Shown here in pieces: positions 7,745-56,703 of a stretch of 64,000 nt of DNA. Made by a program: the position numbers and the translations under genes. Within the stretch, counting starts at the first letter, position 1, and each line of letters opens with the position of its first letter. The notes below the pieces were generated by a model. That model worked only from the letters and a program-made list of their open reading frames with translations, was not told the DNA's origin and searched no databases. This DNA is from Patescibacteria group bacterium (GTDB lineage: Bacteria; Patescibacteriota; Patescibacteriia; XYB2-FULL-38-15): contig JBGSRW010000003.1 in the NCBI GenBank assembly GCA_041737355.1, positions 5,332 through 69,331 on the forward strand. Reading direction: 5' to 3'.

Positions 7745-8245
7745 TTATCCCAAAATATAGGCTCCGCCAGCCGTCAGAGTAGCCACGATAATTCCCGCTA
7801 TTATAACGCCTGTTGTGATTAAAATCAAGGCACGGCGCGGCGGAATTCCGAAAAGAAACGCGGCTACGGCTCCAGACCAGGCGCCGGTAAGAGGCAAGGG
7901 AATGGCCACAAAAATAACGAGAGCCAGGTTAATACCATATTTTAGAGCCCCTCCTTCAAATTTACGGCGCACCCGGGAAAACCACCAGTCAAAAAAACGC
8001 TTTGCCGGATGCCAATGTTTGATCAAAAAATCAGCCACCGGTTTCAGAAGATAGACAATAAAAAAAATCGGCAGCATGTTGCCGAGCACCGACCAAAACA
8101 TTGCCGCCCAGAAAGACATTTTATAGACTAAAATCGCTACGGGCAATGCTACGCGCAGCTCGGCAATGGGAATCATGGCAACGAGCGCTGTCGCGGCTTC
8201 CGGCGGTAAATTTTTAAATATTTCCGCGTAATTTATATCCAGCAT
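7745..8245 (-). CDS. Small multidrug-export-like membrane protein (Sm_multidrug_ex-type family)
   Basis: 166 aa. Four predicted TM helices. Pattern resembles the COG2426 small membrane protein family. Assignment is by recollection of family features only. Confidence 0.4.
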   Translation of the reverse strand: MLDINYAEIFKNLPPEAATALVAMIPIAELRVALPVAILVYKMSFWAAMFWSVLGNMLPIFFIVYLLKPVADFLIKHWHPAKRFFDWWFSRVRRKFEGGALKYGINLALVIFVAIPLPLTGAWSGAVAAFLFGIPPRRALILITTGVIIAGIIVATLTAGGAYILG

Positions 8246-8255
8246 ATTGATTTAA

Positions 8256-8669
8256 CTATTTACTAGCTAGAAAACTATTAGCCTTCTCGAGAACTTTTTT
8301 ACCGCTCGGAAAAGTAAGCTGGGCAAGCGCCGCATCATAGAGCAGCCATTTAAAATCCACGTGCTCATCGGAAATTTTTATCTCATCAGTTTTGGTTTCC
8401 GCCAAATAAAAAATCGCTTCTTTGTAAACAATCTTTCCTTCTTTTTTATAAAACCAAAATATTTTCTCGCGAAAACCGGGAAAAAATATCAGATCATCTA
8501 CGCCGGTCTCCTCCCTCGCTTCGCGCACTACTGTTTCTTTTTCCGCTTCGCCAATCTCAATTCCGCCGCGCGGAAAATCCCAGTGCCCCGCCTCATAACG
8601 CAAAAGGAGATATTCAATCTCCTTATTTTTTTTAAAAATTACTGCCCCGGCAGAAACTTCTTTTGGCAT
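8256..8669 (-). CDS. NUDIX hydrolase
   Basis: 137 aa. Nudix box GGIEIGEAEKETVVREAREETGV, matching GX5EX7REUXEEXGU. Confidence 0.8.
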   Translation of the reverse strand: MPKEVSAGAVIFKKNKEIEYLLLRYEAGHWDFPRGGIEIGEAEKETVVREAREETGVDDLIFFPGFREKIFWFYKKEGKIVYKEAIFYLAETKTDEIKISDEHVDFKWLLYDAALAQLTFPSGKKVLEKANSFLASK

Positions 8670-10407: not shown

Positions 10408-11565
10408 TTACCAACTCCGATAAACCTTTTCTGTTTCCGCAACAATTCTACCCCAGTCAAAATTTTCTTCAATAAACTTTTTTCCTCTACCTCCGCGCCC
10501 TTCCACGATTTCCGGAGAATTCAGAAGATAAATAATTTTTTCGTACAGATCATCGATATTTTTTGTTTCAAAAGAAAAGCCTGAATGGTCTATTGTTTCC
10601 AAATTTTCCGGGATATTGCTTATCAGGACGCACGTCCCGTAAGACATGGCCTCGAGAATCGTTATGGAAAGACCCTCCGCTTCGGAGGGATGAATATAAA
10701 GATAGGCGTTTGCGAAAAGCTGTTTTAACGGTTCGCCGGTCTGAAAACCGGTAAAAATTATATTCTCACTCTGCTCGGCCAGTTTGTTCAGGTAAGCGGA
10801 ATAATCGTCGGTAAAACTCGGAGCGCCGACAATCACCAGTTTTTTTATCTTTCCTCCTGGCCAATTTTCCGCCGCAGTACCTAATTTTTTTTCCAAATTC
10901 TTGTAGGCCTGAATCAAGTAATGAATACCCTTATGCCTGATGAGGCGGGCTACCGTCAAAATATATTCTTTTTTTTCTAAGCCGAATTCTTTGATTTTCT
11001 CAGTCCCGATGCTCTTCTCTACGGAAACCCCGTTGGGAATATAAAAAATACTTTTTCCAAACTTTTCCCGGCAATATTTTTGAATCGACTGGGAAACGGC
11101 AATAGTCAGATCGGGAAAATGACAAGCGGTCCATTCTCCCCACCCCAGATAAATTCTCGCAAACCATCCCCATTTCTTATGAAAACGGTCAATGCTGTGA
11201 AAGGTAACCACGATTTTAGCTCGCGGTTTTAGTATCCGGGGAATCCAGGCCAAAGTCGATGGCCCGACTCCGTGATAATGGATAATATCAACTTTTTTGA
11301 AAAGAACATGCAGGGTGGCCAAAAAAGTGTGGGTAATAGTATCAAAATTTTTAGTCGGAACGGATGGCAGGGAAACCAAATTTACCCCCTTATATTTTTT
11401 TTGTCCGTTGATTATAAAGCGTGGCCGGACGTAAACGTAGACTTCGTGTCCGCGGGAAGCCAAACGAGCTGCCAATTCTTCCACATGCCTCTCAACTCCC
11501 CCGTCCCGGATGAAGGGAATCCCCTTCTGGCCTATCATGGCAATTCTCATAAATCCTCTTGCCAA
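10408..11565 (-). CDS. Glycosyltransferase family 4 (GT-B, group 1)
   Basis: 385 aa. The N-terminal and C-terminal GT4 domains are both present, with the E-x7-E-like region (EAEGLSITILEAMSYG). Paralog of the partial gene at 62998-64000. Confidence 0.75.
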   Translation of the reverse strand: MARGFMRIAMIGQKGIPFIRDGGVERHVEELAARLASRGHEVYVYVRPRFIINGQKKYKGVNLVSLPSVPTKNFDTITHTFLATLHVLFKKVDIIHYHGVGPSTLAWIPRILKPRAKIVVTFHSIDRFHKKWGWFARIYLGWGEWTACHFPDLTIAVSQSIQKYCREKFGKSIFYIPNGVSVEKSIGTEKIKEFGLEKKEYILTVARLIRHKGIHYLIQAYKNLEKKLGTAAENWPGGKIKKLVIVGAPSFTDDYSAYLNKLAEQSENIIFTGFQTGEPLKQLFANAYLYIHPSEAEGLSITILEAMSYGTCVLISNIPENLETIDHSGFSFETKNIDDLYEKIIYLLNSPEIVEGRGGRGKKFIEENFDWGRIVAETEKVYRSW

Positions 11566-11656
11566 AAATAAATCTTCTTGGTATTATTATATCAGATTTT
11601 GGAAAAGATTACTATTTAAAGGCAATTTATCAAGCTTTTTTTGTTTTAGCCTTTCC

Positions 11657-11729
11657 GACCCGGTAGCTCAGCTGGTAGAGCATCTGCCTTTTAAGCAGAG
11701 GGTCCTGGGTTCGAGCCCCAGCCGGGTCA
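11657..11729 (+). tRNA. tRNA-Lys (anticodon UUU)
   Basis: GACCCGGUAGCUCAGCUGGUAGAGCAUCUGCCUUUUAAGCAGAGGGUCCUGGGUUCGAGCCCCAGCCGGGUCA. Anticodon stem UCUGC/GCAGA with loop CUUUUAA. Canonical D-arm and T-arm. Confidence 0.85.
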
Positions 11730-11805
11730 TTTTGTTTATTTGCCGTGAAAATAGCGATTCACGCCTTGGGTTGCAAATGAAGCCAAGCTGAGATTTATGA
11801 ATTAG

Positions 11806-11834
11806 AAAAACCTTCAAAACGAAGGCTTTTTTTG
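11806..11834 (+). terminator. Putative rho-independent terminator downstream of tRNA-Lys
   Basis: aaaaaccttc-aaaac-gaaggcttttttt. Short stem followed by a T-run. Confidence 0.4.
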
Positions 11835-11884
11835 TTGTTGGGCCAGAGAACACGACGGGCGTATTTATCATTAATGCCCACTGC

Positions 11885-11913
11885 TTGACAAAATCACCGA
11901 TTTATTATAAAAT
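11885..11913 (+). promoter_or_regulatory. Sigma-70-type promoter (TTGACA-N17-TAAAAT) for the GGDEF gene
   Basis: TTGACA at 11885-11890, 17-nt spacer, TAAAAT at 11908-11913. About 50 nt upstream of an AAGGAGGAG Shine-Dalgarno site and the ATG at 11963. Confidence 0.5.
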
Positions 11914-11962
11914 CTTAGATCGTCATAACGGCACAAGCAACATCTTAAAGAAGGAGGAGACG

Positions 11963-12598
11963 ATGTTTGAAGGAATGACGCGCGAAGAGATAATCGCGCA
12001 GTTCCAGCGGACGATCGAAGCGGACGTCGCCCGAAAAGAAAATCTCGAAAAAAGAATCAAGGAACTCGAGGCCGAAAACCGGCAACTACGCCGGCTGATC
12101 GGCGTCGACCATCTGACCGGCATTCCGGTTCGTTACCGCGTCATGAAATTTCTGGAAAACGAAATCGCCCGCTGCCGGCGCTACGACGGATCGACCTTCA
12201 GCGTGCTTTTTCTCGACATCGACCACTTCCGGAAAATCAACGAGAATCTCGGCCACCTGGGAGGAGACGCGGTCTTGCGCGAACTTGCCCAGCGGCTCCA
12301 GGCCGCCCTGCGGCGCTACGATGCCATCGGCCGGTACGGCGGCGAGGAATTCTTGATTGTCCTGCCAAACACGCCTGGCGACAAGGCAATTCTTGCAGCC
12401 GAACGTCTCCGTGAGAAGATCGTCGCCGCAAAGCCATTCGTCTACGGCGATAAAACCGTGACGGTTACCGTGAGCATCGGCATTTCCCAATTCCGCCGCG
12501 AAGACACGGCCCCCGACCTGATCGAGGCCGCCGACATGGCTATGTTCCGGACTAAGGACCGGGGACGGAACTGCGTCGAGCCGGACAGTCGGCCGTAG
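11963..12598 (+). CDS. GGDEF-domain diguanylate cyclase (coiled-coil N-terminus, GGEEF active site, RxxD I-site)
   Basis: The track ORF begins at 11885, but the start is more likely the ATG at 11963, preceded by AAGGAGGAG (11951-11959). GGDEF core LTGIPVRYRVMKF...FSVLFLDIDHFKKINE-like...GGDAVLRELA...RYGGEEFLIVLPNT, with the I-site RRYD five residues upstream. The gene is conspicuously GC-rich relative to its flanks. Confidence 0.85.
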   Translation: MFEGMTREEIIAQFQRTIEADVARKENLEKRIKELEAENRQLRRLIGVDHLTGIPVRYRVMKFLENEIARCRRYDGSTFSVLFLDIDHFRKINENLGHLGGDAVLRELAQRLQAALRRYDAIGRYGGEEFLIVLPNTPGDKAILAAERLREKIVAAKPFVYGDKTVTVTVSIGISQFRREDTAPDLIEAADMAMFRTKDRGRNCVEPDSRP

Positions 12599-12611
12599 AA
12601 ATTAACCTCGC

Positions 12612-12670
12612 AAGGACAGAAAAACCCATCCAGGGAGGAAGGGTTTCTAAAATTCTGTCCTTGTTTTTTT
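12612..12670 (+). terminator. Rho-independent terminator (long nested hairpin plus T-run) between the GGDEF gene and murG
   Basis: aaggacagaa...aaaccc...gggttt...ttctgtcctt followed by gttttttt. Confidence 0.55.
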
Positions 12671-12676
12671 ATTATT

Positions 12677-13747
12677 TTATCTTTTTATAATCTTAAAAAT
12701 TTCCTCAACTATAGTCCCCGCCGCCCCGATTTTCATTACGCCTTTCATGTTTCTGCTTAAATTTTCCAATTCCACCTTGTTGTTTAACAATTCCCTGGCG
12801 GAAGAAGAGAAATTTTCCGGCGTCATGTCTGCTTGCTCGATGATCCGTACCGCATTATTTTTTTTAAAATACCAGGCATTATCCTCCTGATGGCTTTTCG
12901 GCATGGGTACGAGTACCGTCGGCTTACCGAGAGCCGCAAGCTCGGTAAGCGTCCCAAGCCCAGCTCTTGAAATTACCAGATCGGCAACCGCGTAAGCGTC
13001 CTTGAGCTGTCCGGCTAAAAAATCGAAAACGTGATAACGCCCTGCACCGTTCCCGGACAAATTATTTCCAAACCGTCCACCCGTTACGTGGATAACCTGA
13101 CAAAATTTTACGAGCTCCGGTGCGGCTTTCAAAACAACCTCGTTCAATTTAAGCGCGCCCGTTCCCCCGCCTAAAACCAATATCGTCGGAATATTTTCTT
13201 CCAGACCGAAAAATTTTAAAGCCGCTTCCTTATCCCCCGAAAAAATTTCCCGCCGTACGGGATTCCCTGTCCATATCGCTTTAGGAAAATATTTTTTTCC
13301 TTCCGGAAAAGCGACTGTTACGAGCTTGGCGAAAGGAGCGGTAAGCTTATTGGCCAAACCGGGCCTGATATCCTGCTGATGAACAAGGCTCGGAACGCCG
13401 AGAACCCAGCCGGCCCAAACAACCGGCACTCCGACGAAACCGCCGGCTGATAAAATAATTTTTGGTTTGAATCTTAAAATTATCCAGAGGGCTTTTAAAA
13501 AACCTCCGGTAATCAGAAACGGAATTAATAAATTAAATCCGGAAAAATAGCGTCTTAATTTCCCAGCCGGAATTTTTTCAAAAACTAAACCGTTGGCGCG
13601 GATAAGTTCCGCCTCCGGACCGTTATTGGTCCCCAACCATAAAAAATCTGCTCCGGGCATTTTAGTTCTGATTTCTTCGGCTAAAGACAGAAGCGGAGTT
13701 ACCGAACCCATTGTTCCGCCTCCGGTTAAAATAATTTTGTAGTCCAT
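12677..13747 (-). CDS. murG: Undecaprenyldiphospho-muramoylpentapeptide beta-N-acetylglucosaminyltransferase MurG
   Basis: 356 aa. N-terminal GGGTMGSVTPLL glycine-rich loop. GT28 N-terminal and C-terminal domains. Follows ftsW. Confidence 0.9.
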   Translation of the reverse strand: MDYKIILTGGGTMGSVTPLLSLAEEIRTKMPGADFLWLGTNNGPEAELIRANGLVFEKIPAGKLRRYFSGFNLLIPFLITGGFLKALWIILRFKPKIILSAGGFVGVPVVWAGWVLGVPSLVHQQDIRPGLANKLTAPFAKLVTVAFPEGKKYFPKAIWTGNPVRREIFSGDKEAALKFFGLEENIPTILVLGGGTGALKLNEVVLKAAPELVKFCQVIHVTGGRFGNNLSGNGAGRYHVFDFLAGQLKDAYAVADLVISRAGLGTLTELAALGKPTVLVPMPKSHQEDNAWYFKKNNAVRIIEQADMTPENFSSSARELLNNKVELENLSRNMKGVMKIGAAGTIVEEIFKIIKR

Positions 13748-27224: not shown

Positions 27225-27272
27225 CAATAAAAAGACACCGTCTCAGCAATTGCTAGTTGCCAAAACGGTGTG
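27225..27272 (-). terminator. Possible terminator hairpin 3' of the GC-rich two-gene module
   Basis: 7-bp stem acaccgt/acggtgt with a palindromic inner loop (gcaattgc). On the minus strand it is followed by CTTTTTATTG. Confidence 0.3.
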
Positions 27273-27289
27273 GTGTTCATCCTCCTTGT

Positions 27290-27505
27290 TCAGATCGTGT
27301 TCTCCCCTGGAGCAGCCGGCCGTTCCGCGACCCTGGCGCGCAGCTCATCGGCACAGAGACGGTCCCAGCGCCGCTTGAACTGCTCGTTCTTCCGACGATT
27401 GCCGTCCAGCTCGGTGAGACGGATCAGCCGCGCGACCTCCATCTTCTCCCTCTGGATTGTGGATAGATCGCCCACCGGCCTTCTCTTCTTGCGCAACCTT
27501 GCCAT
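27290..27505 (-). CDS. Small Arg/Lys-rich protein of unknown function (second gene of the GC-rich island)
   Basis: 71 aa (MARLRKKRRPVGDLSTIQREKMEVARLIRLTELDGNRRKNEQFKRRWDRLCADELRARVAERP...). Perfect Shine-Dalgarno site AAGGAGG 5 nt before the ATG at 27505. GC-rich. Confidence 0.5.
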   Translation of the reverse strand: MARLRKKRRPVGDLSTIQREKMEVARLIRLTELDGNRRKNEQFKRRWDRLCADELRARVAERPAAPGENTI

Positions 27506-27543
27506 TCCCGCCTCCTTGTTCTCACTGCGACCAGGCTGCGCGA

Positions 27544-28140
27544 CTACAGGCCGGCCTTGGCGAGAGCCGCGAGCGAGCGACCGTCAGTGGAGTGCCTGCC
27601 GAACTGGATCACGGTCATGCCCTCGGCCTCCGGGAAGTCCATCTCCACGACATAGACTGCGATGATGCCCTCGATGCGCTGGGGATTGGTCTCGATGAAG
27701 CCGACTGGTTTCAAACCCTTCTCGGCCAGTTCGCCCTTGGAGATGCTGGACGGCTTGAGCTCCAGAATCCCGCCGTTCAGGCCTGTGGCCTTGCGCACGC
27801 GCACAAGCAGCGCGCCGTACTTGCGGGTCGTCTCGATCACGACGTGGCCCACGATGCGCGGCATGGTGGGATCCGCCGACTGCGGCACATTCGGTTCCTC
27901 GTAGAGCGCAATCTGGCCCCAGCCGCCACGATCCACGTAGCGAGCGTCACAGAACTTGCCATCGCCGCGGCAGCTCCGGCCGGTAGCCGGATCGAAGCAC
28001 CAGAGCTCGGCCTCTTTGCCTTCGGCGATCTTCTTCTTGCGGATCTCGTCCGACTCGAGGCAGAACTTGACCGGCCTTCCGAACTGGAAAGCCACCTCGC
28101 TCAAATGCAGGATCTCCGCCTTCTTCTCACCCTCAGCCAT
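27544..28140 (-). CDS. Protein of unknown function (first gene of the GC-rich island)
   Basis: 198 aa from the ATG at 28140 (MAEGEKKAEILHLSEV...). Shine-Dalgarno site AAGGAAGGA 4 nt upstream. Balanced amino-acid composition, unlike the overlapping plus-strand ORFs. GC far above the genome background. No family recognised. Confidence 0.55.
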   Translation of the reverse strand: MAEGEKKAEILHLSEVAFQFGRPVKFCLESDEIRKKKIAEGKEAELWCFDPATGRSCRGDGKFCDARYVDRGGWGQIALYEEPNVPQSADPTMPRIVGHVVIETTRKYGALLVRVRKATGLNGGILELKPSSISKGELAEKGLKPVGFIETNPQRIEGIIAVYVVEMDFPEAEGMTVIQFGRHSTDGRSLAALAKAGL

Positions 28141-28187
28141 CTCGTCCTTCCTTTCTTGAAGCCCCCGTGGCTTCTCTTTGATATTGA

Positions 28188-28219
28188 TAAGGTTAGACGA
28201 CAAAATTAAAATTGTCAAG
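28188..28219 (-). promoter_or_regulatory. Candidate promoter for the island operon (TTGACA-N17-TAACCT, minus strand)
   Basis: Minus-strand read is CTTGACAATTTTAATTTTGTCGTCTAACCTTA. It is 24/29 identical to the rpmA promoter core TTGACAATTTTAAAAAGGTCGTCTAAAAT. Confidence 0.35.
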
Positions 28220-28225: not shown

Positions 28226-28251
28226 AAAGCGGCCTTTCGGCCGCTTCCCTA
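28226..28251 (-). terminator. Rho-independent terminator 3' of the 28266-28481 gene
   Basis: Minus-strand read aagcggccgaaaggccgc followed by tttttt. Confidence 0.55.
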
Positions 28252-35936: not shown

Positions 35937-36305
35937 ATGAACAAAATGCTCGAGGAATTCAAGCAGTTCGCCATGAAAGGCAGCGTCCTTGACCTGGCTG
36001 TCGGCATTGTGATCGGCATCGCTTTTGGGAAAATCGTTTCGTCGTTCGTGAACGACATCCTGATGCCGATCGTCGGCATGCTTTTCGCCATAAACTTTTC
36101 TACGCTCTTTGTCGTCGTCCGGAACACGGTTATCAACTACGGCGCTTTTCTCCAAGCAACTGTCGAATTCCTGATTATCGCTTTCACCCTTTTCCTTTTT
36201 GTCAAAGCGATTAACGCGATGAAGAAAAAAGAAGAAGTAAAACCGGCCGAACCGACTGCGGAAATCAAACTCCTCACCGAAATCCGCGATTCATTAAGAA
36301 AATAA
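35937..36305 (+). CDS. mscL: Large-conductance mechanosensitive channel MscL
   Basis: 122 aa. MLEEFKQFAMKGSVLDLAVGIVIGIAFGKIVSSFVNDILMPIVG is canonical MscL. Confidence 0.9.
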   Translation: MNKMLEEFKQFAMKGSVLDLAVGIVIGIAFGKIVSSFVNDILMPIVGMLFAINFSTLFVVVRNTVINYGAFLQATVEFLIIAFTLFLFVKAINAMKKKEEVKPAEPTAEIKLLTEIRDSLRK

Positions 36306-44232: not shown

Positions 44233-46125
44233 TTACCTGATTGTATCGCTAATTGTCCGCGACGAGGCTTCAACTGAGGCCTTGCTATAATCGGACGACG
44301 AATTTATATTTGCGCCGCCCTCAATATAGTTTGTCCGGAAAACTTCCGGCACGGCAATAATCTTTTTTTCCCAATCAGCGCCGTAAAGCGCCGAGGCCGC
44401 GCTGGCGGAGGTTACCCAGCGCAACTGGCTACTGGCCTCAAGGGCATAAATTTTGGGATCCAAAACGCGGAAGGGAGTATCCATGCTGACGAATTGGACA
44501 AGATATGTGCCGGGCTTAGCGATAACGTTTCCCCCCAGGGGCGCTGACGTCACGGTTTCGTGGCTTACCGTTTTAATACCGGAAAACCCCGAATACCATG
44601 AAAAATAAATTGCCTGAGTCGGAAAAACATGCCGCTTTCCGTCTGTCCCGTAATAATAAACCGCCGTGCTGCCGCTTTCTTTAAAAAGATCGCCGTAGAC
44701 CAATCCGCTGGGCGGCGTGACGGCCGTAAAAGTCACTGTCGCAGTTTGAGTTATGGCCGTACTGTCAACGGTAGCTGTGAAAATCGATGTCCCGGCCGTG
44801 CCGGACCTTACCTGCAAAGTCGCCTGGCCTGAAGAATTTGTAATGCTGCCTCCTGATACCGAAGAAACCGTATCAGTGCTGCCCCGGCTAGAAGTCAAAA
44901 CTACGGTTTTCCCGGAAAGAGGATTGTCCGAGGCGTCGCGGACGGTCACGGAAACCGTCGCGTAAGAACTATTATCCGCCGATACCGAAGATGGCGTAAC
45001 GTAGACGCTTGACCTTGAAGCGGAAACCGGACCGGGTGTCGGTGTTGTTGAAGTAAAAGTCACGGTAGCGGTTTCGGCAATGACCGTGCTGCCGGTTGTG
45101 GCTGTAAAAACAGAACTCCCCGCGGTGTTGGAATGAACTTGGAAATAAGCCTTGCCGTCGGAACCGGTTGTCCCTGTCATACTTACAATTGTATCTATAG
45201 CCCCCCTGGTTGAAGAAAGCGTGACCACTCTTCCGGAGAGCGGGCTGCCCGAAGAATTTTTTATTGTAGCCGTAATAACTGAAATCGACGAACCGTCGGC
45301 GACAACAGAAACCGGTGAAGCCGAAACAGTTGACTGGCTGGCGGAAACTGTCAGAGCCGGATCGGTCGTTGTCCTAAAACTCCAAGGATTACTCACGGCT
45401 GGCGAGATGCCGGTAGAAACCAAATATCCAATCTTATCTTCCCCCGTTGCCGTAACTGTCACATTGGTATCGTAAGGGAGAGTCAGCAATCTTGACCGAG
45501 TCACTGCGTTGCCACTCCACGACGGCGGGCCCCAGCTGCCGGATGAAATAGATATGCTCACCGTTCCGGTATTCATCGGCTCGGAAAAAGTTACTCTAAC
45601 AAATGACGACGTCACGCTCACTCCGGTTGCCCCGGCGGTTGGCACGGTTGAAAGAATAACCGGCGAAGCATTGTCGTCAACATTAACTAGGGTCTGATCA
45701 GGAGCCGCCACGCCCAATACCATGACACTGCCCAAAGTTCCCTGATTGGTATAATCAATATCCGCAGGAACAAAAGTTCCCGGATAACCGGTCTCGCCCG
45801 TGTTGCCGGAAACAAGAAGATAAAAATAATTTGTTGAACCATCACAGTTTGCATCAGATCCGGAGCCGTTTAATCTTCCTGTCGGAGCGGACAACCCGAT
45901 GCTTCCGCCGCCGATAACCCAATCACCAGCCTCGAATTGGCAACTTGTGACATTAAGGTCAAAAGTCACCTTAAGGCGGTCAATCGTGCCGTTGTGGTCA
46001 GCGTCCGAAAAAGCGGCGGACACTAAAGTTGGTGTCCAAGCCAAGGCCACCTGCGGTAATGCCAAACTGAATCCGCTCATTGCCAAAATGGTTGCCACAA
46101 CGAGAAAAATTCTAATTTTTTTCAT
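44233..46125 (-). CDS. Secreted Ig-like (Big-type) domain protein with the shared YYYG-DGKR-VFP C-terminal module
   Basis: 630 aa. Signal peptide MKKIRIFLVVATILAMSGFSLALPQVALA. Thr/Ser-rich Ig-like repeats (TATVTFT). C-terminal module GDLFKESGSTAVYYYGTDGKRHVFP...SWY...VKTVS. Confidence 0.6.
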   Translation of the reverse strand: MKKIRIFLVVATILAMSGFSLALPQVALAWTPTLVSAAFSDADHNGTIDRLKVTFDLNVTSCQFEAGDWVIGGGSIGLSAPTGRLNGSGSDANCDGSTNYFYLLVSGNTGETGYPGTFVPADIDYTNQGTLGSVMVLGVAAPDQTLVNVDDNASPVILSTVPTAGATGVSVTSSFVRVTFSEPMNTGTVSISISSGSWGPPSWSGNAVTRSRLLTLPYDTNVTVTATGEDKIGYLVSTGISPAVSNPWSFRTTTDPALTVSASQSTVSASPVSVVADGSSISVITATIKNSSGSPLSGRVVTLSSTRGAIDTIVSMTGTTGSDGKAYFQVHSNTAGSSVFTATTGSTVIAETATVTFTSTTPTPGPVSASRSSVYVTPSSVSADNSSYATVSVTVRDASDNPLSGKTVVLTSSRGSTDTVSSVSGGSITNSSGQATLQVRSGTAGTSIFTATVDSTAITQTATVTFTAVTPPSGLVYGDLFKESGSTAVYYYGTDGKRHVFPTQAIYFSWYSGFSGIKTVSHETVTSAPLGGNVIAKPGTYLVQFVSMDTPFRVLDPKIYALEASSQLRWVTSASAASALYGADWEKKIIAVPEVFRTNYIEGGANINSSSDYSKASVEASSRTISDTIR

Positions 46126-46210
46126 AGATTTATTTAATTTATGAATTAATTATACTTTTCACTCCACTTACTAATATAACGATAACTGAGCCAAAATCTT
46201 TCAAAGACTT

Positions 46211-49200
46211 TTAATAGATGCTCGCCAAAGACGGCTCTTTCATGGTAATCGAAGCGCCGTTCGGGAAATAGATCATATCCGAGGCGGGAAGAACATTACT
46301 CCAGAGGAAATTGTTGGCGGTGAAAGCCGCTTCGGAGACGACCATTCTTTTCTCCGCGCCCTGGACGTAATAGACATCGGACAACGTGGCGTATTTGATT
46401 AGAGCGCCGGTCGGATAAGAATCGGTTGTAATGTCCGGACCGAAGTTATAATCTCCCCAAAAAATTAATGGCACATCGACAACTCTCTTGGCCCAATCAT
46501 TTCCGTACAATGTTTTGGCCCTGGCCTCGGTCGGCACCCAGCGCAGAAGGCCGTTCGGTTCAACCGCGTAAACCTTCGGGTCGGTTTGAATTTTTACCAA
46601 TACCGTTCCTCCTCTTACCACTACGTTTTTACCAAGTGAAATGCCCCTCAACTGATCGTCGGAAACCGTTTTAACGCCGGACCAATCAAGATACCATGTC
46701 CGGTAAGTCAGGGAATTCGGAAAAAGATGGCGTTTATTGTCCGAACCGTAATAGTAAACTGCCGAACTCAAACTGCTCTTGATTAAATCGCCCACTTTAA
46801 GACCTGAAGGAATTTCTACGGGCGGCGGAGTTGCTCCGCTTGCGAAGATCACGGCAGCTGTCTGGTCGATAACTACTCCGCCGGCATTGGCCGTGTAAGT
46901 TGAAGTGCCCGCTGTGCCTGACTTTACTTTGAAAGTAGCTTTCCCGTCTGCACCGGTTGTGCCAGCAACAGTGGTTACCGTATCGGTTGCCCCGCGGCTT
47001 GAAGAAATGGTTACTGCTTTTCCGGAAAAAGCGGCGCCCGATTCGTCTTTTGCCGTAATAGTGATAGTCGATTCGCTAACTCCGTCAGCAATAAGCGAAG
47101 ATGGGGAAGCAATAATAGTCGACTTGGAAGCGGAGACCGTCGGAGCAGTGTAGTTGATGATGAAATCGGCGTCGGAAATATCAGAGGCCAAAAGACCGCC
47201 GGCGCTGTCATAGCCGTCGATTTTTATTTTTGCCGTTCCGGAAGAAATGTTTGGCACGGTCCATAAGTAAGTTCCGTCATTTGCCTCGTCTTCGGCAACA
47301 ACATTGGCAAAGGTCACGCCGCGATCGGTTGAGTAATATAATTTGACTTTACTGACACCCGTTCCGGTTGAAAACCAGGTAATGTTGCGACTGGAATTAC
47401 CGGCCCAAGCCTCTCCGCCGTTCGGCGCGTTCAAGGTAATCGTAATCGGCGCACCTCCGCCCCCTCCGCCACCGCCTCCGCCTCCACCAGCAACAGTAGT
47501 AAAGCTCCATGGATTTGGCACTAAGCTCCCCGACAATGAATTAGCAGATGGATCATCTCCTGCTGTAATTTGCTGGGTATAGCTGGTGCTATTTGCAAAT
47601 GCTGTATGAGAATAAGTCGCGATGCTACTTCCTCCAGACCAAACCGCTGCCCAGCCACCTGGGTTAGGAGCTGAAGTTTTAATCACTGTGCCAGTATTCA
47701 TCGGTTCGCTGAAAGTGACTACCACACTTGCTGTTGTCGTGGCTCCTGTTGCTCCACTAGCCGGCGAAGTACTGACAATAAACGGCGCAGCCCAATCATT
47801 ATAAATTGCCTGAGTCTGTTCCACCCCGGCATTATTTATATTGCCGGCTGCATCCTCTAAAGAAAATGGAATCCCGCCTCCCTGGCTGAAAATACGTATC
47901 GTCCCCGCATTGTTTGTATCAACAACGGTCGCTTCCGTGCCCAGACTAACGATTGTGGAGGAAACTGTGCCTGTAATCAAATCAGTTGCATCCGGACCAA
48001 AACCGGCGCCGTCAAAATCACCGTCATCAAATAGATTCAAATTGTCAGCGCTTAGGGTGCTTGCAGCCACTACTGGTTCTGAATAACCAACAGTAAAGCG
48101 GTCAATCTTGCCATCAAAATCCGAGTCCTGATAGGAAAAATATCTAATAACCGGTGCCGCGCCGTCGGCCGCATTGCCCGGAGCTCCGGCTGTATTCAAA
48201 TCATTGCCATACAAATCCTGTGCATTGGCGGAAGTCCAGGTCAAAGCAGGAGTAGCACCCGTATCGGGAGTACCGCTTTCTGTCAAAGCGTAAACTAAAG
48301 TTGTTGTACCCGTTCCGGAACTGGCACCTATATTCACAGGATAACCGGTAACGGCAAAAGCATTATAATCAGGATCCACGGTTGCTTCGGTATAAACGGC
48401 GGTTATCCGATCGATTTGGCCATTGCCATCTGCATCACCCGTGGTAACAGTGATACCACCGGTGCCGGAAGTATCAATAACTATATTGCTCGTATCGGCG
48501 ATATTATTGGGAGCGCCGGGAACACCCGAACCGCTCTGGTAATTACCAACCACATCATATACGCCTTCACCTCCGAATGGAATCGAACTTACTGTCAGGT
48601 CTGCGGAATCTTCACCGCTATTGGTGGGACCGACATTATAAAAACCATAAACAGTGTTACCGGAGACATTACCCCACCCCACGGTTACACCATTATCCAA
48701 AGTAATGGTAAGTGAACTTGCGCCTGATAAAGGTTCATCGTAAGTGGCGGTAACGTTAACGCTCGATCCGGGTCCATAAGTATCGTCAGCAGTGGTTGAA
48801 GTGAAACTCACCAATGTAGGTGCGGTCACGTCGATTACAATATCGCCAGCATCGCCAATGTTATTTGGCGCACCAGGAACACCGGAAGCCGCCTGAATAT
48901 TGCCATACAAATCAGTCGCACCTTCGACCGTAATTGAGGCAACGGTCAGATCCGAAGAATCTTCACCGCTGCCCGTTGCGCCAACCCAATAGGTGCTATC
49001 CAAAACACTGCCGGTAATATTATTTAAGACGACAGCAACGCCATTATCCAAAACTACGGTAACCGAACTACCACCGGCTAAAGGTTCGTCATAATTGGCG
49101 GCGACATTAACAGGAGATCCCGGTCCATAAGTACCATCCGCTGCAAGTGAAGTAAAGCTTTGTAGAGTCGGCGCAACGGTATCTTTGAATACTGTGCTTG

Positions 49201-51871
49201 TAGATGGCCCGCCCGAATTTAATGCCGGATCGGTCAACTGTACTGTAAGAGTAAGTACGCCGTCAGCCAACGATGAAACATCTATCGGTCCTATTGTATC
49301 GGTAGGTGTTGCAATTATTCCTGATCCTATTACCGTACCTAAAGCCGTATCTCTGATTGTATAATCATATGTTGATCCAACTTCTGCGCCAGTAAAAGTG
49401 AAAGTTAATGCAGTTTCATTTGCAAAATTAATATAGGGCTGATCAATCGCCGCCGTATATCCAAAAGGAGCGGCCCCGTCGTCCACCATAACCGGCCCGC
49501 CTGGCGGGGTAGTTTCGGCAAAGTTATAGCCGATCACCGCGATTGTGTCCGAAACGCTGTTATTGTTGTCGCCATTATTATATAAAATAGTCGGGTCAAC
49601 GGCGCCGCCGGTTTCACCAGCGTCAGCTGTGATTAAAACATCAAGAGTAAAACCTGCGCTCGCGTCATCAGGAGCAGAGGAAAAAGCCGCATTTATATCG
49701 CCTCCGGTAATTGTCCAATCACTGATGGTACTAGTGCTGCCGCCGGGCGCTGTCCCCATAAGCACATGTTCCGACCAAGTCGTTTCAATGGTATCAACTG
49801 TTCCGTCGCTATTATTATCAAGATATTCGGCGGAAACAATAACCGGCTTTGCAGCGTCGAGCACGGTTGTGGTTGAGATATTAGCCGCGTTATTTCCGTT
49901 CAAATCCGCAATGTATTGAGTAGAATATGTGTAAGCAATCTGCGGCTCCACTCCTCCGCCCCAGCCCGCGACGCCGGTTTGGTCTGGCGAAGTTCCGCTG
50001 ACATCAAGGATAATAAAACCACTCATCCCATTAGCGCAACCCAAGCCGCCAAAAGCGCAGCCGGAAACATCAAAACCGGTCAAGTCGTTGGCTGTTGCCG
50101 TCCACTCGCTGTCATCGTAGGCGGTGCCCAAGGCGGCATAAGTCACCGGCTCGGAATAAAGAATCAGCAAGTCGTTAACTATGTTGTTTGGTGTTTCAGG
50201 ATAAGCTATGCGACTATCGCCGGCGGTCACCGTGCCGGAAGTATCAAGGTCGTCATAAACATATTCTTTTCCCGGAGACCAAGTGCCGTCAGCGCCGGTA
50301 ACTTTACACTGAGTAAGTGTTTCGATAACGCTACCGATATCACCATCTCCTCCTGCGACTGTGGAGCCGGACGAGTAAGTCCCGCTAAAGACCTCTGTAA
50401 GCCTCACATCACCAATGGATACAAGGTTATTTGTGTCGTTGTCAGTATAAACATCTTCGCCACCATCCCATTGATTGGCCGTGCCGCCGGTTCCCACAGC
50501 GCAATTGACCAAAGATTGAATTGCTAAACCAATGTCTACATCCCCTCCACCAACCGTTCCCGGAGTGCCCGGCGCGGTATCCATATTCACATAACCAGTG
50601 GCCAGAAAAACCGGTAAAGCTTTATCCGTGGAAGCAACCGGCGCACCGTCAACTGCTAAAAGATTTCCCGCCGTGTCAGCCAGATTTCCGTTAGCCGTTA
50701 TTTGGGTATTTGGCGTAGCGGCCGTGTCGCAACCACTCTGGTCAAAAATGCCGCAAGTTCCGGCATTTTCCACCAATAAAACCCTGAAAATATTATCATT
50801 TGAAACCGCGCCGGTGTCGTAACCGGTTACCGTGTAACCTGCCACGGTTATTGTCAAACTGGAAAAATTATCATTTAAATTTTCCGAAGCGGTAAAATTA
50901 ATTTCGTCGATTTTCCCGTTACTGCCCGCATCGCCCGTTTCGCGAGCCGTCACAACCGGATTTAACGTATCAACTGAAATACCTTCTCCCCCTCCGACAT
51001 AGGCAGTCTGGAAATTACCATGCTGATCTTTGGCTCCAGTAATGTTATCAACGGTTAAAGTCTGGGCTTCATTCACGTCAGCCACAGTGAATTTGCTGCG
51101 GAAAGTGTTTTGATCCAGCCATTTATAGGATGGCAAACCCTCTATAGGCTCCAAAGTCAAAGTGCCTGAAGTGATAATGTCGGGGAGAAAGCCTACCGTA
51201 GGATTTACGGACGAATCCATAGTGTCCCAAGGAGTGCCTCCAACGGCGGCAATATTGGCGTAATCATAAGTGAGATGAAATATTCCCGCAGTGACAACCG
51301 AATCGTTTATGAAAGTAGTACTTGGGGAAACGGCAGATACTACCGGCGCCGATGTATCAACTATATTCGCCATGCTATTGCTGAGTAGTGTTACGCCACC
51401 AAGGTCATCGCTATCTCTGGCAGTTACGACCACCTGTGAGGCCGCATTACCCGCGCCAACATCAATACCACTGGCGGCAGCATCGAGTATCACAAAATCA
51501 AGCCGCCAAACATCTCCCGCGCCATTATTGCAGGTTTGCACCGCCAAAACTTCCGTAGCCGTCCCGCCGTATTTTGCTAAATCAACTGTTGCGGTTGGAA
51601 GAGAAGTTGTACAATCGCCATTTGCTATATTATCAGCGTTAGTGATAGTCGCATCAATTCGGATAGTATCTCCAATATTGGCAAATGTATTTACGTCTGC
51701 ATCAGTTAACAATGTTAATGAAACATTATTAATGGTGATACTTAGCGGTGCGGCCTTAACTTCATTTTTTGACATATTCACGTAAATGCCGATACCCAAA
51801 CTAAAAATCATCGAGATTGCCACCGACACCGGCAATATTTTGAAAAATCCTTTTTTAAATTTTTCTGCCAT
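46211..51871 (-). CDS. Giant secreted cell-surface protein (1886 aa) with Ig-like/cadherin-like repeats, a poly-Gly linker and the shared module at the C-terminus
   Basis: Signal/anchor at the N-terminus. Long beta-rich, Thr/Gly/Asp-rich repeats. The G14 run is encoded around 47452-47493. C-terminal GDLIKSSLSSAVYYYGSDNKRHLFP...WY...VKTVS. Confidence 0.65.
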   Translation of the reverse strand: MAEKFKKGFFKILPVSVAISMIFSLGIGIYVNMSKNEVKAAPLSITINNVSLTLLTDADVNTFANIGDTIRIDATITNADNIANGDCTTSLPTATVDLAKYGGTATEVLAVQTCNNGAGDVWRLDFVILDAAASGIDVGAGNAASQVVVTARDSDDLGGVTLLSNSMANIVDTSAPVVSAVSPSTTFINDSVVTAGIFHLTYDYANIAAVGGTPWDTMDSSVNPTVGFLPDIITSGTLTLEPIEGLPSYKWLDQNTFRSKFTVADVNEAQTLTVDNITGAKDQHGNFQTAYVGGGEGISVDTLNPVVTARETGDAGSNGKIDEINFTASENLNDNFSSLTITVAGYTVTGYDTGAVSNDNIFRVLLVENAGTCGIFDQSGCDTAATPNTQITANGNLADTAGNLLAVDGAPVASTDKALPVFLATGYVNMDTAPGTPGTVGGGDVDIGLAIQSLVNCAVGTGGTANQWDGGEDVYTDNDTNNLVSIGDVRLTEVFSGTYSSGSTVAGGDGDIGSVIETLTQCKVTGADGTWSPGKEYVYDDLDTSGTVTAGDSRIAYPETPNNIVNDLLILYSEPVTYAALGTAYDDSEWTATANDLTGFDVSGCAFGGLGCANGMSGFIILDVSGTSPDQTGVAGWGGGVEPQIAYTYSTQYIADLNGNNAANISTTTVLDAAKPVIVSAEYLDNNSDGTVDTIETTWSEHVLMGTAPGGSTSTISDWTITGGDINAAFSSAPDDASAGFTLDVLITADAGETGGAVDPTILYNNGDNNNSVSDTIAVIGYNFAETTPPGGPVMVDDGAAPFGYTAAIDQPYINFANETALTFTFTGAEVGSTYDYTIRDTALGTVIGSGIIATPTDTIGPIDVSSLADGVLTLTVQLTDPALNSGGPSTSTVFKDTVAPTLQSFTSLAADGTYGPGSPVNVAANYDEPLAGGSSVTVVLDNGVAVVLNNITGSVLDSTYWVGATGSGEDSSDLTVASITVEGATDLYGNIQAASGVPGAPNNIGDAGDIVIDVTAPTLVSFTSTTADDTYGPGSSVNVTATYDEPLSGASSLTITLDNGVTVGWGNVSGNTVYGFYNVGPTNSGEDSADLTVSSIPFGGEGVYDVVGNYQSGSGVPGAPNNIADTSNIVIDTSGTGGITVTTGDADGNGQIDRITAVYTEATVDPDYNAFAVTGYPVNIGASSGTGTTTLVYALTESGTPDTGATPALTWTSANAQDLYGNDLNTAGAPGNAADGAAPVIRYFSYQDSDFDGKIDRFTVGYSEPVVAASTLSADNLNLFDDGDFDGAGFGPDATDLITGTVSSTIVSLGTEATVVDTNNAGTIRIFSQGGGIPFSLEDAAGNINNAGVEQTQAIYNDWAAPFIVSTSPASGATGATTTASVVVTFSEPMNTGTVIKTSAPNPGGWAAVWSGGSSIATYSHTAFANSTSYTQQITAGDDPSANSLSGSLVPNPWSFTTVAGGGGGGGGGGGGAPITITLNAPNGGEAWAGNSSRNITWFSTGTGVSKVKLYYSTDRGVTFANVVAEDEANDGTYLWTVPNISSGTAKIKIDGYDSAGGLLASDISDADFIINYTAPTVSASKSTIIASPSSLIADGVSESTITITAKDESGAAFSGKAVTISSSRGATDTVTTVAGTTGADGKATFKVKSGTAGTSTYTANAGGVVIDQTAAVIFASGATPPPVEIPSGLKVGDLIKSSLSSAVYYYGSDNKRHLFPNSLTYRTWYLDWSGVKTVSDDQLRGISLGKNVVVRGGTVLVKIQTDPKVYAVEPNGLLRWVPTEARAKTLYGNDWAKRVVDVPLIFWGDYNFGPDITTDSYPTGALIKYATLSDVYYVQGAEKRMVVSEAAFTANNFLWSNVLPASDMIYFPNGASITMKEPSLASIY

Positions 51872-52049
51872 ATTTTTCTAAAATTATTTATTTTTTTATA
51901 TTAAAAAACCCTCTTTCGAGAGTATTAAAATTCTTTCCCTCCTGCGGGGTCTTGTAGAAAACGACAAGCACGGGTAAATTTTCATAACTTCTCTTAGTCT
52001 ATAAAATATTCCCAAATTTAGCAAGGAATCTTATCCACACGCTTGTGGA

Positions 52050-54215
52050 TTACTCAATATAGAGAGCTCTTCCTGCAAGGGGTAATCCCTCTACCAAATA
52101 TCCCAAGGCATCTTTATCGCCGTCGTTCCATTCAAAATTATTTTTGGAAAAATCTTCTTCGGCACCGTCGCCCAAAAGATTGACCCAAACTTTTTGCGGA
52201 CCGTACTGACTTCCATAAATTAAACCAGAAGTGTTAAGTTCTAAAACCAAAGTCCGCGTTGCGCCGGCGGCAACGAAAATTTCTGAGCCGTAATTAAAAG
52301 TAAATTTCAAAATGCCATAATCGTTTTCGTTGGTCTCGAAACCGGGCGAAGCGACAACCGTCCTCGTGCTTGCGTCATAAATTCCGTAGGAAATACTGCC
52401 GGAATATCCTTCAGCCAGGGCATTATCCAAATTTTCGGCAAAATGCAAATCGGCATGGCCGATATTATTTCCGTAATCTGAATTAATTTCAAGCAATTTT
52501 TCCAACAAATCATTGCTTGTCCCGTCCGTGTCAACATCGTCTGAATAAACCGCGAAAGTCAGTTCCTTAACTTTAGACGGACCGGCCTCATCGGAGGCAA
52601 TATCAAATTTCGTTACCTCGGTAAATCCCCTGCCGGCCGGACCGAGCGGTGTTTCCGGATTCAGGGTAACCTTGATTTTTGTTTTTTTAATCAACATTTC
52701 GGCCGCGGCCTTGGCCTTGTTTTCAATCTGGCCGTATCCAAAATTTATATCCCAAAAATCAACCCCAGAAATTTGTCCTTCGGCTTCAAAATCGGTCTCG
52801 GTCAAGGTGAAAGACGGCCGGTCGCCGCTTATAGCTCCTCCGGCCGAAGTTTTAATATCGGCAAAAATTGAAAGTATCGCTCCTTCGCGCGGCACATAAA
52901 AATCTAAATCGTAGAAAGTTATTTTTCCAAGCCAAAGATTTTCTATTTTTGTTACAATTGTCCCGTCCCATTTCGGATAACTTATCCAAATTTTTTTGAT
53001 ATTCCGGTCATAATCTGGCAATTTATTGACTAATGAAATTTTCTTGACCAAAAACGGCTCATTCACCCCGGAAAATTTCAATCGGTTGAATTCGACTCCC
53101 AACCTTCCCATCGGAACAATCGCCGAACTTGGCGCGCCGATATCCGTTTCTATTTTCAAAATTCCGTTGTGCAAAATGGTTATTATGGCGAGTGGTTTTG
53201 CCCCGCCGTTTGGCTCGTCGCCCGAAGCCGAAATAAATTTTCCTAACCCGTCTTTTGCCTCAATGTCCTGGCCTGCCTTAGAAATATCAAAAGCGAAACG
53301 GTCGTCGTTCAGATACGGCGCCCCGGAATAGAAATCAACTTTAACGAATAAATGTTTTGTCGCTCCGGCCGGAATCGTCCAGTCCAAATTTTGAAAATAA
53401 ATTTTTCCGTCAACTGCCGGGGAAACGGGGCCGGCCAAAAGATTCCCTTCCTCGTCGTAAAGATAAACTAAAGAAACCAAATCCTGGATATAAACCGGCG
53501 AACCGTCATCCGAATCGTTACCAATGCCAAAATCAGGATCGCCCTGAACTTCGTCAACATAACTCGTTAAAGCCAATTTGGTTATGGTGATATCGCTCCC
53601 CCCGCCCACTCCGAATCTGAAAGCCGCGGCCGAAACCAATTTGCTATTTTTCACGTAAACGGCGGAGGAAACTCTGTCGGAAAAAGAAATCGCCAAGCTT
53701 CCCGGCCCAATCGGCTCTACCGGCGTCGATGCCGGTTCCCCGGAGAGAATCGGCTCGCCGATTTTGTAGCCGGCAAAAATAATTTCCGGCAAATCGTCAA
53801 TCAAACTCTGCCAATTTGTTCCGTAGCGCGAGACGGCTATCTCTGGCGTCGCAAGATGGCGCAAGAGACCATACTCGCTTACCTCGTAAACTTCCGGGCG
53901 GTTCGGCAATTTCAGAAGCCTAATCCCTGGTTTATAAAAACGGGCCCCGCCCGGGAAAATATTTTCCAGTTCTGCCCCGCTTATTGTTTTTACTCCGGAA
54001 AAATCGTTGTACCAGGAACGGTAGGTTTTTTCGTTCGGAAAAACATAGCGCTTGCCGTCACTCCCAAGATAATAAACCGCCGGCGAACTGCCTTTTATAA
54101 GGTCGCCAGCGGAAAAAGTTATTGCTTTGGCTTCGTGAAAAATGGAACAACAGAAAAAAATGAAGCTAAAAAAACAAAATAATCTAAAAGTATTATAATT
54201 TTTCCATTTAGACAT
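52050..54215 (-). CDS. Secreted large protein with the shared module at the N-terminus
   Basis: 721 aa. Signal peptide, then GDLIKGSSPAVYYLGSDGKRYVFP...SWY...VKTIS. The rest is beta-rich with no known motif. Confidence 0.6.
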   Translation of the reverse strand: MSKWKNYNTFRLFCFFSFIFFCCSIFHEAKAITFSAGDLIKGSSPAVYYLGSDGKRYVFPNEKTYRSWYNDFSGVKTISGAELENIFPGGARFYKPGIRLLKLPNRPEVYEVSEYGLLRHLATPEIAVSRYGTNWQSLIDDLPEIIFAGYKIGEPILSGEPASTPVEPIGPGSLAISFSDRVSSAVYVKNSKLVSAAAFRFGVGGGSDITITKLALTSYVDEVQGDPDFGIGNDSDDGSPVYIQDLVSLVYLYDEEGNLLAGPVSPAVDGKIYFQNLDWTIPAGATKHLFVKVDFYSGAPYLNDDRFAFDISKAGQDIEAKDGLGKFISASGDEPNGGAKPLAIITILHNGILKIETDIGAPSSAIVPMGRLGVEFNRLKFSGVNEPFLVKKISLVNKLPDYDRNIKKIWISYPKWDGTIVTKIENLWLGKITFYDLDFYVPREGAILSIFADIKTSAGGAISGDRPSFTLTETDFEAEGQISGVDFWDINFGYGQIENKAKAAAEMLIKKTKIKVTLNPETPLGPAGRGFTEVTKFDIASDEAGPSKVKELTFAVYSDDVDTDGTSNDLLEKLLEINSDYGNNIGHADLHFAENLDNALAEGYSGSISYGIYDASTRTVVASPGFETNENDYGILKFTFNYGSEIFVAAGATRTLVLELNTSGLIYGSQYGPQKVWVNLLGDGAEEDFSKNNFEWNDGDKDALGYLVEGLPLAGRALYIE

Positions 54216-54228
54216 TGAACAAATTAAT

Positions 54229-55914: not shown

Positions 55915-55936
55915 AAAGCTTAATTTATTTAAAAAA

Positions 55937-56599: not shown

Positions 56600-56669
56600 A
56601 TTTTTTCCTCCCTTTTAATTCTAAGGACTTACCTTTATTTTATCACAAAACATTGATTGCGGCAAAATC

Positions 56670-56703
56670 AAAACAGGGAGCCGGAGAGGCTCCCTGTTTT
56701 TTC
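56670..56703 (-). terminator. Rho-independent terminator 3' of the 1188-aa surface protein gene (hairpin usable on both strands)
   Basis: acagggagcc-ggaga-ggctccctgt flanked by T-runs on both strands. Confidence 0.6.

Follow-up and report, generated by a model that had tools for sequence, protein, structure and literature searches.

How does a gene of high GC content, equipped with its own promoter and terminator, come to lie directly behind a tRNA gene in a bacterium of the Candidate Phyla Radiation (CPR)? The question is raised by a stretch of 64,000 nucleotides from a Patescibacteria group bacterium (contig JBGSRW010000003.1, assembly GCA_041737355.1), hereafter the window, where a 211-residue stand-alone GGDEF protein, a predicted diguanylate cyclase, is encoded between tRNA-Lys(UUU) and the cell-wall gene murG. 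A preliminary description of this DNA took the gene for a foreign cassette, recently inserted at the 3' end of the tRNA. Comparison with other genomes points to a different history: the GGDEF gene is a long-standing resident of a group of Falkowbacteria-like CPR bacteria that amounts to a single family-level clade. The full account that we regard as probable is that of a resident minimal cyclase, brought into contact with the tRNA by deletion of an mtaB gene, with a catalytic domain that was exchanged between lineages and a high GC content that is actively maintained.

The place of the gene in related genomes is the first argument. A search of 5.8 billion proteins for homologues returned as nearest relatives a small group of short stand-alone GGDEF proteins, 197-243 aa in length, those with a named source belonging to Candidatus Falkowbacteria (P0003) and Patescibacteria (P0005). 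The short CPR proteins form one clade in a neighbour-joining tree. Every member of this group with a readable contig occupies the same slot, in the order GT4 glycosyltransferase (minus strand), tRNA-Lys (plus), optional mtaB (plus), GGDEF gene (plus) and murG-ftsW-mraY (minus). An orthologue fills it in seven loci besides the window (L001, L003, L004, L045/L046, L047, L048 and L049), which come from metagenome-assembled genomes (MAGs) at NCBI and from Logan and ENA assemblies, hence from different studies, samples and assemblers; L045/L046 is one locus seen in two assemblies, and the seven are otherwise independently assembled. The left landmark, tRNA-Lys, lies in the window at 11657-11729 (plus strand; ARAGORN, and 73 bits in Rfam) and at the matching place in L001, L004, L045, L046 and L047, while the L049 contig starts within it. 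The right landmark is murG (12677-13747, minus strand, identified as an open reading frame (ORF), by the Pfam Glyco_transf_28 match in L002 and by synteny), followed by ftsW and mraY. Between the two, the GGDEF coding sequence is the only convincing gene, other ORFs of at least 50 codons being antisense inside it, lying across the tRNA or overlapping an mtaB relic described below.

These observations bear directly on recent insertion. The idea was a natural one: the coding sequence is about 15 GC points richer than its flanks, it abuts the 3' end of a tRNA gene, and it forms a self-contained unit of promoter, gene and terminator. Yet orthologues stand in the same slot in seven other loci, precisely the observation that the preliminary description had named beforehand as speaking against recency. 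Nor do the loci represent a single population or a co-assembly artefact, because the flanking genes have diverged widely, with murG 53-82% and ftsW 72-89% identical and a proportion of synonymous differences (pS) of 0.5-0.75; such divergence in housekeeping genes makes the loci distinct species. The promoter and terminator, furthermore, are host-like in GC and conserved between genomes. On this evidence it is very improbable that a foreign GGDEF cassette was recently inserted by horizontal transfer. An error of assembly or binning, by which a GC-rich fragment of another organism was joined into a CPR contig, has almost nothing to recommend it: the GC steps at both ends of the coding sequence are sharp and MAG data are prone to chimeras, but NCBI MAGs, Logan and ENA assemblies of different samples recovered identical junctions independently of one another, the host-like promoter, Shine-Dalgarno site and terminator are contiguous with the coding sequence, and the orthologues, 42-86% identical among the GGDEF loci, are not copies of one another.

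When did the clade acquire the gene? One genome per GTDB species was scanned with murG, which gave 41 loci; the GGDEF gene was carried only by the two whose murG is at least 61% identical. No GGDEF gene was found within 5 kb of murG in 35 more distant CPR-like loci and five Bacteroidota-like ones. Inside the clade there is no empty site, all eight loci being occupied. As more distant relatives lack a GGDEF gene beside murG, its gain is placed at the base of the clade, as a single event.

Some side observations accompany this survey. In L008 (6211-6615) and L035 (6074-6424), with murG about 50% identical, tRNA-Lys likewise lies downstream of murG, and the interval holds, in place of mtaB and GGDEF, a different ORF of 116-134 aa on the murG strand; the L008 ORF, the one of the two that was scanned, has no Pfam match. 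The Falkowbacteria MAG of L001 has an IS200/IS605-type Y1 transposase gene (7892-8425, GC 0.35) between murG and ftsW, absent from the window and the other loci. Seven loci (L004, L008, L014, L024, L025, L028 and L031) stand in records of 'binchicken' or third-party (TPA) assemblies titled 'uncultured Gammaproteobacteria bacterium'. The taxonomy of these records looks wrong: in L004 the GT4, M50, murG and ftsW products are 69-86% identical to those of the window with gene order kept, and for the other six the argument comes only from murG (plus ftsW in L024 and L028), 44-51% identical, in the range of the other CPR-like loci.

What, then, of the contact with the tRNA? A full-length mtaB gene at native GC separates tRNA-Lys from GGDEF in L004, L047 and L048. 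The L004 gene (GC 0.38) codes for an MtaB equivalog, with 417 bits against the TIGR01579 cutoff of 357. In the window, positions 11745-11884 (plus strand) align at the DNA level with the first 145 or so nucleotides of this gene (98 of 138 nt identical, 71%), covering roughly codons 1-47 and interrupted by an in-frame TGA and a +1 frameshift; tblastn matches the same segment in two frames, with E values of 8e-4 to 1e-3. About 1060 nt of mtaB are missing relative to L004, the gap ending exactly at the cTTGACAAAAT promoter of the GGDEF gene, and no second mtaB copy was found in the window. A complete mtaB in three relatives and a decayed relic here make the tRNA adjacency a deletion scar, and the native gene between tRNA and GGDEF in those relatives counts against insertion at the tRNA. 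Deletion of mtaB left the 140-nt relic and drew the cyclase cassette up to tRNA-Lys.

The mark of an integration event was also looked for. The preliminary description advised looking near 12600-12680 for a truncated direct repeat copying the 3' end of tRNA-Lys; none is present there, nor anywhere in 11500-12800, and no integrase or recombinase gene lies between tRNA-Lys and murG. To be sure, the tRNA has served as an attachment site in relatives, which gives some credit to the insertion hypothesis: perfect direct repeats of its 3' end, 23-25 nt long, are found in L001 (5702-5726 and 5849-5873) and L049 (4-26 and 96-118). They bracket a GC-rich insert of 75-130 nt with several hairpins, upstream of the cassette, and leave the GGDEF gene outside; they look like attachment (att) scars of a lost integrative element. 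L045 lacks such a repeat, as the window does, and Rfam recognised no riboswitch or small RNA in the window, nor in the additional inserted sequence of L001, L049 and L045. The window gene thus shares with tRNA-linked genomic islands adjacency to a tRNA 3' end and anomalous GC; it differs in lacking an integrase, a direct repeat and variable presence, and in owing its adjacency to the loss of mtaB.

The relic holds a further element. A short hairpin, CCTTC-AAAAC-GAAGG (11811-11825), followed by a T-run (to 11832, plus strand; terminator scan), had been read as a terminator upstream of the cassette. Hairpin and T-run are there, but they lie inside the mtaB relic, where the intact L004 gene has the codons LQNEGFF. 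A matching hairpin with its T-run also occurs in L001 and L049, which lack mtaB. This survival leaves room for co-option, and the element may now act as a terminator insulating the GGDEF promoter.

It can be observed in addition that the ancestral order placed mtaB directly after tRNA-Lys(UUU), as it still is in L004 (3714-4922), L047 (3225-4529) and L048 (122-1438), and that mtaB was lost at the slot in the window genome, L001, L045 and L049. MtaB is the enzyme behind ms2t6A37, a modification that occurs on tRNA-Lys(UUU). If it acts so in these organisms, the gene of a substrate and the gene of its modifying enzyme were neighbours.

The signals that surround the coding sequence are conserved as well. 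In the window, a sigma-70-type promoter, TTGACA-N17-TAAAAT, with 11 of 12 matches in the promoter scan (11885-11913, plus strand), is followed by a Shine-Dalgarno sequence AAGGAGG (11951-11957), five nucleotides ahead of the ATG at 11963. The coding sequence (11963-12598, plus strand) is closed by a long hairpin with a run of seven T (12611-12672; inverted-repeat search), shared with the convergent murG, whose outer stem is a perfect 11-bp pairing of 12611-12621 with 12653-12663. The preliminary description had placed all these elements correctly, from the tRNA to murG, and was right in giving the gene its own promoter and terminator. In seven of the seven loci with enough upstream sequence, a cTTGACAAAA -35 box and a TAxxxT -10 box are kept in place, and the (A/G)AGGAG core recurs ahead of the start codon in the window and in each of the six further loci with a readable start (L003, L001, L004, L045, L047 and L048). 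Three sequence types of the downstream hairpin can be distinguished, and they mostly track the flank groups on the murG side. As a separate observation, its inner loop (12622-12652 in the window) contains GGAGG in all six loci with this hairpin (window, L001, L003, L004, L045 and L049), and it does so although the inner stem has two sequence types.

Within this conserved frame, the catalytic domain has followed another course. The flanks fall into three groups: A, with the window, L003 and L004; B, with L001, L045 and L049; and C, with L047 and L048. The GGDEF domains are distributed otherwise, D-I comprising the window, L003 and L001, D-II comprising L004, L047, L048 and L049, and D-III represented by L045. 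Identity between the three classes is about 50%, and D-II carries a 3-residue insert. The domain of L049 is 86% identical to that of L048, yet murG, ftsW and mraY of the two are 65%, 75% and 83% identical; between L049 and L001, by contrast, murG is 80% and ftsW 89% identical and the promoter and 5' untranslated region are near-identical, yet the domains are only 50% identical, the drop in identity starting near the domain start. L004, the closest relative of the window by its flanks, has a domain only 45% identical to that of the window. The N-terminal helix types, for their part, track the flanks. This discordance indicates that the catalytic domain was replaced by recombination between lineages inside a conserved expression frame. 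After a single gain at the base of the clade, such swaps within the promoter-terminator frame would have yielded the three allelic classes.

Composition raises a second question, since the gene should have come to resemble its host after so long a residence. Window genes have an average GC of 0.446 (standard deviation 0.049), with 0.46 (0.074) at third codon positions (GC3), while the GGDEF coding sequence reaches 0.59 and 0.73. The excess is present in all eight loci (GC3 0.53-0.73 against 0.29-0.47 in the flanks), lowest in L047 and L048 (0.53-0.54), and the jump is limited to the coding sequence in each of them, the 120 nt upstream having a GC of 0.30-0.46 and the 80 nt downstream 0.34-0.55. 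Between GGDEF orthologues pS amounts to 0.53-0.68; the window and L003 differ by 0.61, and both have a GC3 of 0.73. With synonymous sites close to saturation, an identical GC3 means that the excess is maintained and is not a relic. It consists mostly in a preference for NNC over NNT codons (0.79 against about 0.32). Strand bias accounts for a part only: other plus-strand genes also have more C than G at third positions, but their GC3 is 0.43-0.50. Translational selection was considered as a general cause of the NNC excess and set aside, the ribosomal protein genes L27 and L9 having NNC fractions of only 0.17-0.29.

The GGDEF gene is not alone in this respect. The preliminary description had rightly placed its GC far above that of the flanks; it is not the sole outlier, for an island at about 27260-28210 (GC 0.61-0.64, GC3 0.60-0.78) surpasses it in GC. 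The island has two minus-strand ORFs, of 198 aa (27544-28140) and 71 aa (27290-27505), and is flanked by a hairpin terminator at about 28228-28246. Neither Pfam nor NCBIfam has a match for its proteins. The 198-aa protein belongs to a small family (33 matches), in which every member with a named source comes from Patescibacteria or unclassified bacteria, and its orthologues in L051 and L052 lie in the same slot, bordered by FdtA plus a small ORF and, on the opposite side, by RmlD. There too the excess persists, with GC3 0.75-0.84 against 0.32-0.45 in the flanks. A phage reservoir for the two GC-rich genes was tried as a source and rejected: on IMG/VR viral contigs the GGDEF protein has only distant (at most 43%), unrelated matches and the second-island protein none, so that neither has close relatives there.

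Two further observations touch the same subject. The MscL gene (35937-36305, plus strand), with GC3 0.63 and NNC 0.74, is intermediate between ordinary genes and the GC-rich islands and is, like GGDEF, one of the few plus-strand genes. GC skew of the plus strand is negative along the whole window, about 50 of some 58 genes are on the minus strand, and the GGDEF gene is one of the few oriented opposite to their neighbours. Gene orientation follows replication in many bacteria; if it does so here, the GGDEF gene would be transcribed head-on to the replication fork.

The gene might instead have come from a GC-rich donor in one ancient transfer and then descended purely vertically, a proposal that must be weighed against these data. 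The transfer would have brought in, for example, a receiver-less derivative of a REC-GGDEF protein (REC, receiver domain) of Acidobacteria or Deltaproteobacteria; the GC content would reflect incomplete amelioration, and the discordance between domain and flanks mere variation of rates. The next matches after the short proteins are indeed REC-GGDEF proteins of Acidobacteria, Deltaproteobacteria and similar, 45-51% identical over stalk and domain. The search for a donor lineage, advised in the preliminary description, did lead to GC-rich phyla, but the nearest relatives are the short GGDEF proteins in the same slot. Absence of the gene beside murG in more distant CPR also fits an ancient transfer, and the lower GC3 of L047 and L048 could be partial amelioration. 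However, a passive relic should have decayed at the divergence that separates the window from L003, variation of rates cannot produce an L049 domain so much closer to L048 than the flanking genes are, and the same persistent excess marks a second gene family restricted to CPR. We consider this transfer unlikely.

What maintains the excess is a matter for conjecture. Biased gene conversion at recombination hot spots might produce a GC excess confined to coding sequences, and high GC in the exchanged domain could possibly be kept in this way. A bolder extension, tentative and on the doubtful side, would make the slot a fixed 'expression socket', its domain swapped repeatedly between CPR lineages, the three ancient classes under balancing or diversifying selection, with frequent recombination (GC-biased gene conversion) holding this gene, and at least one more CPR-only gene, at 27.3-28.2 kb, at a GC3 of 0.6-0.8 within genomes of 42% GC. 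If it were true, the enzyme or its product could be a target in conflicts between episymbiont and host or with phages, and GC-anomalous genes in CPR genomes would mark recombination hot spots, not recent foreign DNA. Whatever the cause, a gene that is GC-rich, tRNA-adjacent and self-contained, yet a conserved resident, makes composition alone an unreliable flag of horizontal gene transfer in these genomes.

We now turn to the protein itself, which is most likely a minimal, catalytically competent diguanylate cyclase in which a helix of about 40 residues is fused straight to a GGDEF domain, as judged from its sequence. The preliminary description had recognised a stand-alone GGDEF diguanylate cyclase with intact GGEEF and RxxD motifs, and profile searches and invariant motif columns agree with it. 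Pfam GGDEF (PF00990; E=5e-43, 147 bits against a cutoff of 23.8) covers residues 48-203 (12104-12571, plus strand; allelic class D-I, from homologue and PDB alignments), and TIGR00254 scores 155 bits against 37.4. The GGEEF motif occupies residues 126-130 (12338-12352), five residues downstream of the RxxD inhibitory site (I-site), R117-R-Y-D120 (residues 117-120, 12311-12322). In 18 homologues these motifs and the residues that bind metal and GTP are invariant or nearly so: D85 and D87 (DxD), N93, R117, R124 and K198 are invariant, D102 and D120 nearly invariant, and R202 is also among the conserved residues of the catalytic domain. The active-site residues align with those of the PadC and Marinobacter diguanylate cyclase structures, and all eight syntenic orthologues keep the I-site. 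Ratios of nonsynonymous to synonymous substitution rates (dN/dS) of 0.08-0.17 within allelic classes place the protein under purifying selection.

An AlphaFold model built on the 18-sequence alignment (pLDDT, the predicted local distance difference test, 93.5) has a continuous helix over residues 7-46 (11981-12100, plus strand; DSSP on the model, and Foldseek), which we read as a dimerising coiled-coil stalk, followed by the canonical GGDEF fold, with a root-mean-square deviation of 1.0-1.5 A from PleD and other GGDEF domains over about 165 columns. A heptad pattern can be read by eye in the stalk (L28, I32, L35, N39, L42, I46), and the TSC22 leucine-zipper family of Pfam matches weakly over residues 27-52. 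There is no receiver domain: the 47 residues ahead of the GGDEF domain have no PF00072 match and form a single helix in the model. The best Foldseek matches, SiaD (7e6g), PleD, a GCN4-WspR fusion (3i5c), DgcB (6ttr) and an Idiomarina phytochrome-linked cyclase (6et7), are without exception cyclases whose GGDEF domain is preceded by a coiled coil or linker helix; the helix of the model aligns with the stalks of SiaD, GCN4-WspR and DgcB. On the model, then, the protein is most likely a coiled-coil dimer producing cyclic di-GMP (c-di-GMP) under I-site feedback: the helix would form a parallel coiled coil that pairs two GGDEF domains, and two GTP would be condensed into c-di-GMP. Output would depend chiefly on transcription and on product feedback at the RxxD site, and not on a sensor domain.

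Several known systems resemble this arrangement. SiaD of Pseudomonas aeruginosa, in which a coiled-coil stalk likewise runs directly into GGDEF with no sensor domain, is the best match both in Foldseek (E 8e-20, the stalk being included in the 213 aligned columns) and in NCBIfam. The window protein is no SiaD equivalog, scoring 156.5 bits where NF038266 requires 290, and it is shorter (211 against 252-276 aa), with a much reduced N-terminus; no siaABC-like partners are found near its gene, the neighbours being tRNA-Lys, GT4 and murG, and activation of the SiaC-dependent type cannot be assumed. The GCN4-WspR fusion has a leucine-zipper-like helix in register with GGDEF, together with GGEEF and RxxD, and aligns over residues 27-205 of the window protein (TM-score 0.74-0.79); both have an Asn at a core position of the stalk, by eye in the case of the window protein. 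That fusion is engineered, whereas the window protein is natural. In DgcB of Caulobacter crescentus, the deposited structure of which (6ttr) is a fragment comprising coiled coil and GGDEF domain, the likeness is similar (Foldseek E 4e-19, 26% identity). The REC-GGDEF cyclases WspR, PleD and DgcR are the nearest relatives in sequence outside CPR; the window protein, having no receiver, differs from them in lacking control by phosphorylation. It is, in short, an additional member of the already known stalk-GGDEF cyclases.

Could the protein do something other than make c-di-GMP? It might be a degenerate GGDEF receptor or scaffold, or a Hypr- or defence-type cyclase making, for example, cyclic GMP-AMP (cGAMP). 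The want of a PilZ, EAL, HD-GYP, MshEN or riboswitch partner in the window would suit this proposal, and a fast-evolving, exchanged catalytic domain is reminiscent of genes involved in conflicts. Against it, GGEEF, DxD, N93, K198 and R202 are all invariant, no effector gene is adjacent, purifying selection within classes is strong, and a conserved I-site is sensible only if c-di-GMP is the product. Residue D102 is at what we take to be the base-specifying position, equivalent to PleD D344, with Asp in GTP-specific cyclases and Ser in Hypr GGDEFs. Its column ('...GHLGGDAVL...' in the window protein) is a near-invariant Asp, as in canonical GTP-specific cyclases, and not the Ser of Hypr proteins. 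A role outside c-di-GMP signalling thus appears very improbable.

Several points nevertheless weigh against the account of a resident, recombining c-di-GMP synthase. No PilZ, EAL, HD-GYP or MshEN domain was identified by Pfam in any sizeable ORF of the window (for 9.3-22.7 kb, partner domains were read from the Pfam tables of loci L001 and L002), which bears out what the preliminary description had said of phosphodiesterases and PilZ, and Rfam finds no c-di-GMP riboswitch in the window; a receptor, and a phosphodiesterase if there is one, must have their genes in another part of the genome or belong to an unrecognised kind. Synthesis of c-di-GMP is an activity predicted from sequence, and the dimer is proposed from the model of a single chain, together with heptads picked out by eye. 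SiaD needs SiaC on its stalk for activity, and a purely constitutive enzyme is an assumption here. The recombination argument is drawn from eight loci, identity matrices and a neighbour-joining tree. A 10-bp outer stem of the terminator is invariant in six loci, and covariation neither supports nor contradicts the hairpin. As for gene conversion, itself conjectural, it does not obviously explain a GC jump whose limits coincide exactly with the start and stop codons.

The surroundings of the gene provide some hints about what a signal might control. Division and cell-wall genes are prominent in the window (FtsE/X, DivIC, Mur ligases, MurG, FtsW, MraY and a MurA-like gene), together with many glycosyltransferases, a dTDP-sugar cluster, a PMT_2 mannosyltransferase, an S8 protease with FG-GAP repeats, an ECF-type sigma factor and MscL. 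Five very large proteins (630, 1886, 721, 582 and 1188 aa) are encoded on the minus strand in a block at 44233-60289; three of the five have Big_1/invasin-like domains, and their genes show a GC content raised at second codon positions. The ECF-type sigma factor gene and a gene for a DUF5667 protein adjoin this block (60478-62323, minus strand). The very large proteins are candidate adhesins and as such a possible output of a surface-related signal. With envelope, polysaccharide and adhesin genes all around GGDEF, a role at the surface or in attachment is suggested, and c-di-GMP would control functions of this kind.

That CPR bacteria should have such genes at all is less surprising than the preliminary description held. 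Earlier work counted diguanylate cyclase genes in ultra-small MAGs from groundwater and found them enriched in sediment-attached populations (PMC9938205), so that their presence in CPR is not new in itself. What is notable here is the conserved slot beside a cell-wall cluster, the shuffling of domain alleles and a persistent GC excess common to a second gene: two syntenic genes keep an excess confined to their coding sequences despite saturated synonymous divergence, while the GGDEF domain alleles were exchanged. A compact, sensor-less stalk-GGDEF cyclase of one CPR clade, placed next to a cell-wall and division cluster amid envelope and candidate adhesin genes, may offer an entry point to the use of c-di-GMP for attachment in ultra-small episymbiotic bacteria.

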